From IMG/VR virus record IMGVR_UViG_3300021963_000022: 64,000 nucleotides of DNA. The stretch is one strand, 5' to 3'. Positions 16,804 to 20,782 of the stretch are shown piece by piece. The notes beneath the pieces were generated by a model, which saw only the letters and a list, made by a program, of their open reading frames with translations, was not told the origin of the DNA and searched no databases. Each line of letters opens with the position of its first letter. Positions within the stretch are counted from its first letter, which is position 1. This DNA comes from a virus (taxonomy: Duplodnaviria; Caudoviricetes). A program made the translations under genes and the position numbers.

Positions 16804-19500
16804 ATGCTACGAGATGTGTTTTATTACGGGGACAAACCCAATGTACATCCCCGAGAACGTTACGCCAAAGACTTTGATACAGCTAAACAACTAGCTACAA
16901 CTGAACACTTTTGGATTGTTAACGAGTTCTGTGATTACAAAAATATTGATTGGGATTTTGATTTTGAATTCTTACCCGATGAAGATGTATGGGCAACAGA
17001 CCATATCAATATCTGGCCTAGTCAATGGCAGAGTGATAGTGGTACATGGTTATGCTCAGTAAAAGCTGACAATGTAAAAATATATCGCACAGACGTAGAA
17101 CCTGTACATAGAAAAAACGTCATTTCAAGACACTGGGTGAATACTGAAAAGTTTGATACTACTCAGTTTGACTATAGCTGGCATCCTGATCCCGATGAAC
17201 CACCGTTCATATTTCAATTTGGCACTCAATGGGCAAAAACACATGGTCCTAAATACGTATCAGATGGTGCAACTAATATTAAGTATATAACTGAGCCTAA
17301 TGCTAAAATTAAAGCAGATATGACACATTGGGAAAATGCTGTAATTAAAGATTTTGATTATAGCTGGCATCCAGACGCAACTAGTCCACCGTACATATAT
17401 CAGTTTAATACGTTGCTTGATCTAGACCCCGGCCCTAGATATGTTGTACCGGGTCATAATAATAAAGTAGTTAACATTGACCGTGATATAAGCAGTCTTA
17501 ATTTCCCGGTATACTATATTCAATCATCATTAGATGAGTTGATTGAACAGCACCCTGATGAAGTCTTCTGGGCATTGCGTGATAACATTGACTATGATAA
17601 GTTTGATTTTACATGGCGTCCGACTATTGCTAACTTTAAGTATATAAATGTGTTTGGTTCTACTGATAGTGAATCGACACAAAGTTACTTTGTCAATACT
17701 AAAATGATAAAGAAAGGATACAAAGATTTTAACTATATTGAGAACAAACAGTTAGATGATGAGTATCTCGCTAGGTTGTTTAAACCAATTGATATGTTCT
17801 ACATTGATAGAGGAAACCCGCAATCACAAACACAATTTAATGCACTTAAAGAACGTTTCCCTAATATTAAAAAGACACGTTACATAGGATCATGGACTGA
17901 TACTATTGCAAGATGTATTAATCATTGTAGCACAGAACTATTTTGGGTATTGAATAGCGAACTAGATTACAGCGAGTTTGACTTCATATATTATCCTAAT
18001 CCATGGCAAATGCGAATGATACATATATTTGGAACACAATGGACTCATTGGGGTAACACATATGTTATTAATAAAGAACTCTTTTTAGAGAGTACAAAGT
18101 ATGTTAAGGTCATTGAACATTTAAACGGTCTTAACTTTGTAAAAACTAAACGGGCTAAAGCATCAAATGTATTATATGATATTGTTTACATTGACCATGG
18201 CAATACTGATATGTCACACTTAGTAGAGCAGGGTAAGATAGTTGTTAAGTATAGAAATAGTTATATTGACACATTCAAAGACTTGTTACCGTTGCTCCCT
18301 GAAAAGAAAGAACATTATGTTTGGGTAGCTAGTTCTATATGTGATTACAGTTCATTTGATTTCACATACATATGTGATCCTTTTACTAGAGAACAACTAC
18401 ATGTATTCCCTAGTGATAGTCAGAAGTTTGGTGATACGTTCTTAATCAATGTTAATAAACTGCGTGAAGTTATTAATGATGTAGAGTTACTTGAAGATAC
18501 TGAAGTAAATTATAACAAGCAACAGCAAGTATCTAGATTACCTGCACCAACATTCACTAATACAGATTCACATGCAAATAGTATTAATGTTGACTATAAC
18601 TTTCCCTATGCTGTGTTTATGACTGCTGATAACATTGTAGAGTACAAAGATACTGAAACAATCAATCTATGGAGTAATAAAGATAAGAACATATTGATTA
18701 CACACGAAGGCGGGACACGCATCATTGTACCCAAAGAAGCTAGTAAAACAGTTACTAATGAATTGTATGAATATCCATATATAAAAACTATATCAAAGAC
18801 TAATACTAGTAAGCCATTAGATATTGTATTCTTTAGTAACGGTGAAACTGTTGCCGATCAAAACTATGAACATCTGTTGAATGTTACTAAAGGTATGCCC
18901 AACAATGTTAAACGCATTGATAAAGTATCTGGTCGTGTAGCTAGTCAACATGCGGCAGCTAACATATCAGATACTAATTGGTATTTTCTTGTTAATGCTA
19001 AGTTGAAAGTGTCAGATAAATTTGATTGGCAATGGCAACCTGATAGATTACAAGAACCAAAACATTATATATTCAACGCATTGAACCCAGTTAATCAATT
19101 AGAGTACGGTCATATGGCTATTGTTGCTAACAACAAGAAACTTACATTGAATACAGAAGTAAATGGGTTAGACTTTACTTTGGCTAGTAAGCATCAGTCG
19201 CTAAATATTCTGTCAGGTGTTGCTCTGTTCAATACTAGTGAGTTAGAAACATGGCGTACCGCATTCCGTGAGACACTAAAGATTAAAGACAGTGTAGTAA
19301 AGAACAATGACACCGCAAGCAAATATAGATTGCGTAATTGGTTAAACGTTGCAGAGGGCGATTATGCCCAAACATGTATACAAGGTGCTAATGATGCTGT
19401 AAAGTATTATGAATCAGTAGATGGTAACATGGACAAGTTAATGCTCAGTTATGATTGGGCATGGTTGAGTGAATATTATAAACAGCTTTATGGAAAATAA
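16804..19500 (+). CDS. Large multi-repeat glycosyltransferase-like protein
   Basis: 898 aa with repeated FDYSWHPD/FDFTW.P units. C-terminal domain is paralogous to the GT-like part of 9647 (WRTAFRE vs WRAGFRE). Confidence 0.55.
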   Translation: MLRDVFYYGDKPNVHPRERYAKDFDTAKQLATTEHFWIVNEFCDYKNIDWDFDFEFLPDEDVWATDHINIWPSQWQSDSGTWLCSVKADNVKIYRTDVEPVHRKNVISRHWVNTEKFDTTQFDYSWHPDPDEPPFIFQFGTQWAKTHGPKYVSDGATNIKYITEPNAKIKADMTHWENAVIKDFDYSWHPDATSPPYIYQFNTLLDLDPGPRYVVPGHNNKVVNIDRDISSLNFPVYYIQSSLDELIEQHPDEVFWALRDNIDYDKFDFTWRPTIANFKYINVFGSTDSESTQSYFVNTKMIKKGYKDFNYIENKQLDDEYLARLFKPIDMFYIDRGNPQSQTQFNALKERFPNIKKTRYIGSWTDTIARCINHCSTELFWVLNSELDYSEFDFIYYPNPWQMRMIHIFGTQWTHWGNTYVINKELFLESTKYVKVIEHLNGLNFVKTKRAKASNVLYDIVYIDHGNTDMSHLVEQGKIVVKYRNSYIDTFKDLLPLLPEKKEHYVWVASSICDYSSFDFTYICDPFTREQLHVFPSDSQKFGDTFLINVNKLREVINDVELLEDTEVNYNKQQQVSRLPAPTFTNTDSHANSINVDYNFPYAVFMTADNIVEYKDTETINLWSNKDKNILITHEGGTRIIVPKEASKTVTNELYEYPYIKTISKTNTSKPLDIVFFSNGETVADQNYEHLLNVTKGMPNNVKRIDKVSGRVASQHAAANISDTNWYFLVNAKLKVSDKFDWQWQPDRLQEPKHYIFNALNPVNQLEYGHMAIVANNKKLTLNTEVNGLDFTLASKHQSLNILSGVALFNTSELETWRTAFRETLKIKDSVVKNNDTASKYRLRNWLNVAEGDYAQTCIQGANDAVKYYESVDGNMDKLMLSYDWAWLSEYYKQLYGK

Positions 19501-19502
19501 GA

Positions 19503-20111
19503 ATGCCGTATAAAACAGATATATTGGGATGGATGGTTGAGTCCGAGTTAAAAGTCTTAGAGACTATTGCAAAACAAGTTCCTGTCAATGGAAATATTGT
19601 AGAAGTAGGATCAATGTTTGGTAGAAGTGCTGTTTGCTTTGCAATGTCAGCAGATCCCAGTGTTACCATCAATTGTATTGACTATTTTCCTACTGATATG
19701 AGACAACAGCATGGTTGTTCAGATGAGGATTCAATTAAAAACAGTTTCCCTATTGCTGATAAACTGTATAATGTTGAGCAAGACTTTATAGAGAATACCA
19801 AAGAGTTTAAGAATATCAATATGATAAAGGGTGATAGTCCGCATATATTAGTATATACTCCTGATCCTATTGATTTGTTTTTCTTAGATGCAGGGCATGC
19901 CAATCCTAATGATTGGGACAATTTATGTCACTTCATACCCTATATGAAATTGAATGGTATTATTGCAGGACATGATTATCACCCTACACAGTTCCCTGAT
20001 GTATGTGAGAATGTTAGACGATTAGAAGAATTATTTGATATTAAAGCGGAATTATATCCCGGCTCAAGTATTTGGTCTATAAAAGTGACTAAATTAATAA
20101 ATAAAGTATGA
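19503..20111 (+). CDS. Class I SAM-dependent methyltransferase
   Basis: VEVGSMFGRSA (motif I), LFFLDAGH and AGHDY. Confidence 0.85.
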   Translation: MPYKTDILGWMVESELKVLETIAKQVPVNGNIVEVGSMFGRSAVCFAMSADPSVTINCIDYFPTDMRQQHGCSDEDSIKNSFPIADKLYNVEQDFIENTKEFKNINMIKGDSPHILVYTPDPIDLFFLDAGHANPNDWDNLCHFIPYMKLNGIIAGHDYHPTQFPDVCENVRRLEELFDIKAELYPGSSIWSIKVTKLINKV

Positions 20112-20203
20112 AAACTTTTGTTTTGTTAGTTATAGGAGTCTGTATTGCTGTATGTATATACTGGCTAATGGACTGGCAAAGTCACCATGAAGATGGTGAG
20201 TAA
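20108..20203 (+). CDS. Small membrane peptide, 31 aa (MKTFVLLVIGVCIAVCIYWLMDWQSHHEDGE)
   Basis: ATGA overlap with the upstream stop and one hydrophobic segment. Ends where the tmRNA acceptor piece begins. Confidence 0.45.
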   Translation: MKTFVLLVIGVCIAVCIYWLMDWQSHHEDGE

Positions 20204-20552
20204 AGTTATTGCTGTACGAAGCAAAGAGAAAAGTGTCTTGGAAGGGGGTGCGAATCCCCCCAGGTCCACCATAAGGAAGTTTATGAATATTGAATGGTAT
20301 CACGTATTGTTATGTTTAGCAGTTCCGCTAAACTACTTTTACTGGATAGTATTACATAGATTCTTTATGAAGGGCCTGATATAGATTCGACAGGGCAACA
20401 AGTAAATTAGTGGACAGCTCGGCAAAGCAGAAGCCGTTAGGGTTGGGGGAACTCGGCCGTAGAAGCAAAAAAGTAATCGCAAACGATTCACAATTCCTAT
20501 TGGCAGCAAACGCCTAATAGCGAGGTAGTTATACCTTGTAACCAAAAATAGC
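20204..20552 (+). ncRNA. ssrA: Circularly permuted (two-piece) tmRNA: acceptor piece ~20204-20271, intervening segment 20272-20371, coding piece 20372-~20552
   Basis: T-arm GGGGG-TGCGAAT-CCCCC (20244-20260) is followed by CAGGTCC-ACCA (20261-20271). This pairs 7/7 with GGGCCTG (20372-20378) and includes G3:U70. GATTCGAC motif follows. Tag frame GCA AAC GAT...GCC TAA TAG at 20479-20520. Piece ends are approximate. Confidence 0.93.
20283..20384 (+). CDS. Putative 33-aa hydrophobic peptide inside the tmRNA intervening segment
   Basis: AAGGAAG SD at 20273-20279, ATG 20283. Stop TAG lies inside the 5' end of the tRNA-like domain. Confidence 0.45.
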   Translation: MNIEWYHVLLCLAVPLNYFYWIVLHRFFMKGLI

Positions 20553-20576
20553 ATAGGGACTTCGGTCCCTATTTTT
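20553..20576 (+). terminator. Intrinsic terminator after tmRNA
   Basis: ATAGGGAC-TTCG-GTCCCTAT followed by a T run. Confidence 0.85.
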
Positions 20577-20721
20577 CTGGGTATTGCCATGTCCAAGTAC
20601 CGTCTTTTCTGTATAAGCGTTTTCTTCCTGTGACGGTAGCAGATAATTTTCCTGCGCTTTTTCTTCCATTTTCGGCAGCAGTAGGCAAAGAGGATTATGA
20701 AACAATTTAATTGTTTCACGG

Positions 20722-20749
20722 AAAGGTCACTAAGGTGACCTTTTATTTT
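20722..20749 (+). terminator. Intrinsic terminator
   Basis: AAAGGTCAC-TAAG-GTGACCTTT followed by TATTTT. Confidence 0.75.
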
Positions 20750-20776
20750 GGCTTTAACTACACAATGATATATAAT
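20748..20776 (+). promoter_or_regulatory. Sigma70-type promoter giving a leaderless mRNA for ORF 20783
   Basis: TTGGCT-17 nt-TATAAT, with ATG 6 nt after the -10 box. Confidence 0.6.
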
Positions 20777-20782
20777 CATACT

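Follow-up and report, generated by a model that had tools for sequence, protein, structure and literature searches.

A circularly permuted tmRNA gene of a giant T4-like phage lineage, with a spacer that may double as a message

Is the two-piece tmRNA-like element in this virus a genuine gene of the phage, and if so, what would it do during infection? We addressed this question in the window, by which we mean the whole stretch of 64,000 nucleotides analysed here. The window comes from an IMG/VR virus contig of 180,035 bases that CheckV rates as ~52% complete, with a GC content of ~36% and tightly packed, mostly co-directional genes. Taken together, the evidence makes us fairly confident that the element is a genuine permuted tmRNA (ssrA) gene, inherited within an uncultured lineage of ~350 kb giant T4-like phages. 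Judged by analogy with cellular tmRNA, its most likely function would be to supply the phage with its own ribosome-rescue RNA.

ARAGORN called a permuted tmRNA at 20179-20608 on the + strand, the strand of all features of the gene described below, and this was the sole RNA gene called, both within the 64 kb window and over the full 180 kb of the contig. The Rfam covariance model RF04321 (tmRNA_permuted) matched from end to end (model positions 1-213 of 213) with a score of 101 bits (E = 1.6e-18), compared to a curated gathering threshold of 47 bits. Scores across the phage tmRNA family range from 63 to 122 bits, and the window copy falls inside this range. An earlier, sequence-only reading of this DNA had proposed a phage-encoded circularly permuted tmRNA and had named ARAGORN and covariance models as the check; these two independent detectors, together with the covariation and phage context described below, all agree with that proposal. 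The gene is real, far beyond what chance would produce.

The permutation is seen in the order of the parts. ARAGORN places the 3' domain (20233-20271) upstream of the 5' domain (20372-20398). The acceptor piece (20205-20271), delimited by ARAGORN, the Rfam alignment and an alignment of 65 genes, contains helix-2 strands, the T-arm, the 3' acceptor strand, the discriminator A and an encoded CCA. Its 5' end is predicted from the alignment, where conservation among relatives starts at ~20205-20210. The coding piece (20372-20576), as outlined by ARAGORN and the Rfam model RF01850, comprises the 5' acceptor strand, a D-loop-like region, helix-2 strands, the PK1 region, the tag frame, a 3' hairpin and an intrinsic terminator (20553-20576) with an 8-bp stem followed by a T run. 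In the acceptor stem, the 3' strand CAGGTCC, which is followed by ACCA (20261-20271), pairs with the 5' strand GGGCCTG (20372-20378) to give seven perfect base pairs (20261-67 : 20372-78), one of which, G20374:T20265, represents the G3:U70 pair. The sequence-only reading had all of these coordinates right, including the ACCA at 20268-20271. The T-arm (20244-20260) has a perfect 5-bp stem, GGGGG (20244-48) paired with CCCCC (20256-60), and the loop UGCGAAU. Here a G occupies the position of the near-universal U55, compared to canonical UUCGAnU and the Rfam consensus GGGUUCGAUUCCC. At least 119 viral contigs have this G form, compared to only three with a non-G form. G at T-loop position 55 is unusual for a tRNA-like domain and counts against our preferred explanation.

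To assess structure, we aligned 65 distinct genes (the window copy and 64 relatives) and counted base pairs against slid-register controls. Both strands of the acceptor stem, including the ACCA, are invariant in 65/65 genes, as is the T-arm stem, and neither helix shows compensatory pairs. Helix P2a (20234-40 : 20391-97) is 100% canonical, with compensatory change in three of its seven pairs. Helix P2c (20210-15 : 20414-19) is 94% canonical, versus 25-53% for the slid controls, and four of its six pairs show compensatory change; this bears out the cross-piece pairing of GCTGT (20211-15) with ACAGC (20414-18) that had been noticed from the sequence. The PK1 hairpin (20420-23 : 20433-36) is likewise 100% canonical (compensatory change in 3/4 pairs), and an optional hairpin that is absent from many relatives (20441-47 : 20452-58) is 98% canonical (1/7 pairs). 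From this comparison, the two predicted pieces are joined by the 7-bp acceptor stem, as shown by its strict conservation, and by P2a and P2c, as shown by covariation.

A second proposed cross-piece pairing, GTTATT (20205-10) with AATAGC (20547-52), did not hold up. The two segments are complementary in the window, but across the alignment the pairing is 43% canonical versus 34-59% for slid controls, and in an alignment-free test the longest stem averages 4.4 bp compared to 4.0 for shuffled sequences. Instead, AATAGC closes a local 3' hairpin (20528-20552), in which GTTAT (20528-32) pairs with ATAGC (20548-52) around the loop ACCTTGTAACCAAAA. This hairpin covaries in the alignment-free stem test, with a mean stem of 6.2 bp versus 4.0 bp for shuffled sequences and with 33 of 54 relatives having 8-9 bp stems of differing sequence. 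Its loop is conserved in the family and also matches the consensus loop of the beta_tmRNA model RF01850 (CCUUGuuACcAAA in the model, CCUUGUAACCAAA in the window; the two are similar). Two other candidates were discarded. A possible 3' pseudoknot stem, CGAGG:CCUUG, showed no covariation in the alignment-free test, and a local hairpin of the acceptor piece, UUGCU/AGCAA, was favoured by the energy model in a register that is not kept in relatives.

When the two predicted pieces were folded together, the acceptor stem, P2a and the T-arm and PK1 hairpins all emerged. A caveat is that the energy gain on co-folding was no better than that obtained with a shuffled partner, which counts against our preferred explanation. 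The case for structure hence rests on covariation.

How widely is this gene distributed, and in what kind of genome? The 28-base word that spans T-arm, acceptor strand and ACCA occurs exactly in at least 119 viral contigs, among them records of 342-364 kb that are 95-100% complete, two with terminal repeats. ARAGORN makes a permuted tmRNA call in 91 of the 119 listed loci. Among 185,579 species genomes, the same word was found in just two, in both cases on ~20-kb contigs of Bacteroidota MAGs (L169, Crocinitomicaceae; L170, Haliscomenobacter). A standard tmRNA (134 bits) is encoded on a different contig of the Haliscomenobacter MAG, and the permuted copy in that MAG is therefore an extra one. 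These two contigs may be binned phage DNA or may offer a hint to the host; the ORFs of L170 gave no PHROG match. In the window, the tmRNA gene lies downstream of a gene at 16804-19500 (+) for an 898-residue protein that has no Pfam or PHROG match, and in seven relatives the tmRNA likewise sits just downstream of a homologue of this gene. The spread over at least 119 viral contigs, the synteny in seven relatives and the near-absence from species genomes argue for inheritance within a phage lineage. At the sequence level, then, this version of the tmRNA makes up a large phage-only lineage that strong selection has maintained, as opposed to a gene recently acquired from a host.

These observations also bear on the idea that this part of the contig is host DNA, left as a remnant of an ssrA attachment site or introduced by a chimeric assembly. 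Phage integration into ssrA is common and leaves fragments of the gene in the phage (PMC9004378), and the same word does turn up in two MAGs. Here, though, neither piece is missing and the gene has its tag and terminator; the locus is flanked left and right by phage genes and lies well inside a 180-kb contig; this gene recurs with synteny across the viral contigs; one of the MAGs has a separate standard tmRNA; and the word is missing from the other 185,577 species genomes. We regard the host-DNA explanation as highly improbable and effectively refuted.

The window copy itself departs from its relatives in several respects. The tag reading frame (20479-20520; 12 codons by ARAGORN) starts with the resume codon GCA, encodes the tag ANDSQFLLAANA and closes with TAA TAG. 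This tag ends in ...LLAANA rather than the ...ALAA of most relatives, and it is seen once among 93 family tags. The commonest family tag is ANDSQFALAA; others include ANDEQFALAA and ANDERFLMAA, all of which we take to resemble proteobacterial tags, and there are also 27-residue tags ending in LAV. According to the alignment, a 2-base deletion in the window copy has removed the usual family stop and extended the tag by Asn-Ala, and the helix that surrounds the stop codon in relatives is weakened. Position 20243, inside a conserved GGAC, is A in the window and C in 64/64 relatives and in every aligned RNA-library contig. Because position 20243 and the tag stop are otherwise fixed features, we count both changes against our preferred explanation. 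The deviations may reflect a real variant, early decay or assembly error.

One reading of these differences is that the family is functional and the window copy is decaying or inactive, through relaxed selection or through errors of assembly. The substitution at 20243, the singular tag and the weakened helix at the stop codon all point in this direction. On the other hand, every helix remains intact in the window copy, as do the G3:U70 pair, the CCA, the resume codon and the terminator; the RF04321 score lies well within the family range; and the tag frame is still closed by two stops. We judge decay of this copy to be unlikely. Another reading is that the phage RNA alters the outcome of rescue, either by competing with the host tmRNA for SmpB or by adding a tag that host proteases read poorly. 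The ...AANA ending lacks the C-terminal LAA that, from background knowledge, ClpXP of E. coli recognises; tags have been swapped within the lineage, including the 27-residue ones ending in LAV; and a phage that encodes no SmpB must draw on the host's supply. In addition, a phage tmRNA consisting of the tRNA-like domain only has been reported as an inhibitor of host tmRNA (PMC4131195). Against this, most family members have ordinary degradation tags (ANDSQFALAA, ANDEQFALAA) and the odd ending occurs in a single copy, and we rate an altered rescue outcome as decidedly unlikely. Ribosome rescue by a phage-borne tmRNA that works in the standard way remains the reading we prefer.

Under that preferred reading, and with the processing, charging and SmpB-dependent rescue steps taken from established tmRNA biology (PMC11915505), the gene would be transcribed as one precursor running from ~20205 to the terminator at 20553-20576. 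A single precursor is suggested by the spacers that separate the two pieces, since terminator-like hairpins occur in only 5 of 85 and four spacers measure no more than 25-28 nt; for the same reasons we rejected two separate transcripts as a general rule. The window spacer is one of those with such a hairpin (20314-20333). Host RNase P would cut 5' of G20372, and host 3'-end enzymes would trim the upstream product to the encoded CCA at 20271. This would release the 100-base spacer and leave an acceptor piece of ~65 nt and a coding piece of ~205 nt. Host alanyl-tRNA synthetase would charge the RNA by way of G3:U70, and host SmpB and EF-Tu would carry it to stalled ribosomes, where translation would resume at the GCA at 20479 and add the tag ANDSQFLLAANA. 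The likely benefit would be that ribosomes are kept free in infection, as host RNA synthesis fails and broken mRNAs build up.

Reliance on host SmpB follows the gene content of the phage. The sequence-only reading had seen no smpB in the window, and this observation extends further: no SmpB domain is encoded in the window, in the 180-kb contig as a whole or in five relatives, three of which are at least 95% complete. An RNA that travels without SmpB provides a natural test of a foreign tmRNA working with the protein partner of the host.

Which host this might be is a separate matter. It had been suggested that the gene form hints at the host group. The RF01850 (beta_tmRNA) model matches end to end over 20160-20575 (model positions 1-331) with 82 bits (E = 3e-25), the best score within its Rfam clan and 2 bits below the curated cut-off of 84 bits, and for this reason we call the window tmRNA beta-like by sequence rather than a member of the family. 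As a guide to the host, however, gene form is poor. The T-arm/acceptor version of this lineage is found in no cellular genome except the two MAG contigs, and the tmRNA of phage Melnitz is alpha-type and mismatched to its host (PMC9004378). A further case bearing on this point is the cultured Xanthomonas phage X1 (L182, OQ427096.1, 200 kb), which carries an unannotated permuted tmRNA at ~120978-121428 with the tag VAANDADYSVARYA; it scores 76.6 bits with RF04321 and 56.5 bits with RF01850, and is thus beta-leaning. The hint to the host group is therefore weak, and a phage-only lineage of this kind serves as a warning against inferring host identity from gene form. Other genes in the window include those for a large terminase, a UvsX-like recombinase, a helicase and virion proteins. 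The nearest cultured relatives of the terminase are jumbo phages of Proteobacteria, with PA5oct at 49% identity followed by Phosso, Atu_ph07, XaC1 and the Rak2 group, which is a weak sign that the host is proteobacterial. When 20 kb of the window was compared to GenBank phages by Megablast, no match was returned.

The spacer is the least ordinary part of the window tmRNA gene. It spans 100 bases (20272-20371), begins with TAAGGAAGTTTATG directly after the CCA, and is unconserved except for its last ~15 bases; its removal on maturation is predicted. Among relatives, spacer length varies from 25 to 491 nt. In the window, the spacer contains an ORF of 33 codons (20283-20384) for a hydrophobic product, MNIEWYHVLLCLAVPLNYFYWIVLHRFFMKGLI, with its ATG 11 nt past the CCA, the sequence AAGGAAG 4 nt before the ATG, and a TAG stop that falls inside the coding piece. 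Its peptide is kept in two relatives (L010, L025), and homologous ORFs are found in three others (L004, L084, L183). The frame is open in 6/6 distinct variants, and synonymous changes are about as frequent as non-synonymous ones (e.g. 7:7).

Analysis of the family revealed a broader pattern. Among 83 distinct spacers, 25 contain an ATG-initiated ORF that has a Shine-Dalgarno-like motif and fills at least 70% of the spacer, compared to 0.4 on average, and 3 at most, in shuffled sequences. Nearly all spacers of 84 nt or more hold such an ORF, with most starts located 11-14 nt after the CCA, and among the products are many unrelated proteins of up to 151 residues. Support for spacer ORFs, as read from sequence comparison, is modest for the window's own ORF and strong for the family pattern. 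By these data, the window spacer is probably a message for a 33-residue membrane-type peptide. That the tmRNA precursor has two jobs, with the discarded spacer serving also as mRNA for this small membrane peptide (20283-20384), is a more tentative proposal, which we would place a little short of an even call. With the putative ribosome-binding site of the ORF starting 3 bases past the CCA end, spacer translation and the tRNA-type processing of the same transcript would either compete or be coupled. If the proposal is true, the spacer would act across the lineage as a slot for unrelated small genes. We found no description of such a spacer-as-message layout in the literature searched.

The last 15 bases of the spacer before G1 (20357-20371 in the window) follow the pattern TAGTnT..YTTTWTGAT, which is strongly conserved in 85 genes. 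It may serve as a leader for processing or as a -10-like element. The T at -1 would be favourable for RNase P, and spacer ORFs often end at the TAG or TGA within this stretch. The idea that stops close all three reading frames around G1 was dropped, as this is true in only 13 of 83 genes.

We also looked for the gene in RNA libraries. A search of RNA-library runs with 9 kb of window sequence listed no match, and with the tmRNA gene alone as query, runs contained at most one-quarter of its words. Assembled RNA-library contigs from four studies, derived from relatives, align to 20189-20296 and 20351-20566 and not to the middle of the spacer. Three of these contigs bridge both pieces at low depth, and assembled contigs of this kind cannot show RNA ends.

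How does the gene compare to known systems? Two-piece tmRNAs of phages have already been published: Buchholz et al. (2022, PMC9004378) report 53 in phage genomes, of which 50 stem from aquatic samples, and the window gene is a well-supported, ordinary addition to this set. It resembles those of Melnitz (a Methylophilales phage), pelagimyophages and cyanophages in being a permuted tmRNA identified by ARAGORN in an aquatic T4-like phage, in having no integrase context and in belonging to a tmRNA lineage that need not match the host (PMC9004378). It differs in that the Melnitz tmRNA is alpha-type with a glutamine riboswitch in the 3' domain (PMC9004378), whereas that of the window is beta-like with an ORF in the spacer; no Rfam riboswitch family matched the window tmRNA. 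The window phage also differs from the Melnitz group in being freshwater-type and ~350 kb in size. The locus is hence a further documented case of a large aquatic phage with a two-piece tmRNA gene.

The comparison with cellular genes is similarly mixed. Like cellular tmRNAs of the RF01850 type, the window gene has an end-to-end model match, the helix-2 layout and a tag of the ANDxxFAxAA type. Unlike them, it scores 82 bits, under the 84-bit cut-off of the model, has the T-loop UGCGAAU in place of UUCGAUU, is phage-borne with an ORF in its spacer, and has an exact T-arm/acceptor sequence that is absent from cellular genomes save the two MAG contigs. The order of acceptor piece, spacer and coding piece is that of Caulobacter, as far as the work of Keiler, Shapiro and Williams (2000) is described in the papers that cite it (PMC9004378, PMC11915505). 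According to the same two citing papers, tRNA-processing enzymes cut a single Caulobacter precursor to yield two base-paired RNAs. The Caulobacter tmRNA is alpha-type and its processing and tagging have been proven experimentally, by these accounts, whereas those of the window tmRNA are predicted.

Other phages carry tmRNAs of different form. One-piece tmRNAs occur in mycobacteriophages of the Bxz1 group and in Bacillus phage G, and a domain-only form occurs in DS6A (Hudson et al. 2014, PMC4131195); tmRNA and SmpB have been described in huge phages (Al-Shayeb et al. 2020, PMC7162821). The window phage is like the Bxz1 group, phage G and the huge phages in that all are large phages that carry their own rescue RNA beside tRNA genes. 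The genes of the Bxz1 group, phage G and DS6A have standard or truncated forms, while the window form is permuted, and some huge phages encode SmpB (PMC7162821), while the window lineage, as judged from the contig and five relatives, does not.

Within the lineage, tags are swapped, and the non-canonical ending of the window copy is one example of that variation. Comparison of the window (20197-20571) with contig L010 (5075-5449, - strand) showed that the acceptor piece and 100-base spacer are nearly identical. From the PK1 region onward, L010 has a different coding piece and a 27-residue tag, ANVNKTVTVSGKNLKFSARSAKEALAV. This mosaic, in which a window-like acceptor piece and spacer are joined to another tag type, points to recombination within the tmRNA gene and suggests that parts of the gene are exchanged between phages. 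In three other contigs (L171, L172, L173), the same acceptor stem is accompanied by a non-G T-loop, odd short tags (VVDYTGLKEAA, ACVQWVGA) and RF04321 scores of 63-64 bits, and these may represent a divergent or degenerate branch.

The immediate surroundings of the gene offer some further observations. Upstream is a methyltransferase-domain gene (19503-20111), and downstream is a small gene of an unknown phage family (20783-21085). Between the methyltransferase-domain gene and the tmRNA lies a hydrophobic ORF of 31 codons, MKTFVLLVIGVCIAVCIYWLMDWQSHHEDGE (20108-20203, + strand), whose ATG overlaps the upstream stop codon (ATGA) and whose TAA is 2 nt before the conserved start of the acceptor piece; a perfect 7-bp hairpin lies inside it at 20182-20199. 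Because this ORF abuts both of its neighbours, the tmRNA may be co-transcribed with the upstream genes. No sigma-70 consensus promoter was found just upstream of the tmRNA gene, a result that counts against our preferred explanation. An antisense ORF of 146 codons across the tmRNA (20339-20779) has no family match and was taken as spurious. The stretch at 20577-20749 is gene-poor, lies between terminator-like hairpins at 20553-72 and 20721-44, and holds a 13-codon mini-ORF with a GAGG motif (~20699-20740). Finally, contigs with homology to the synteny partner at 16804-19500 contain several tandem paralogous copies of that gene, with 25-37% identity.
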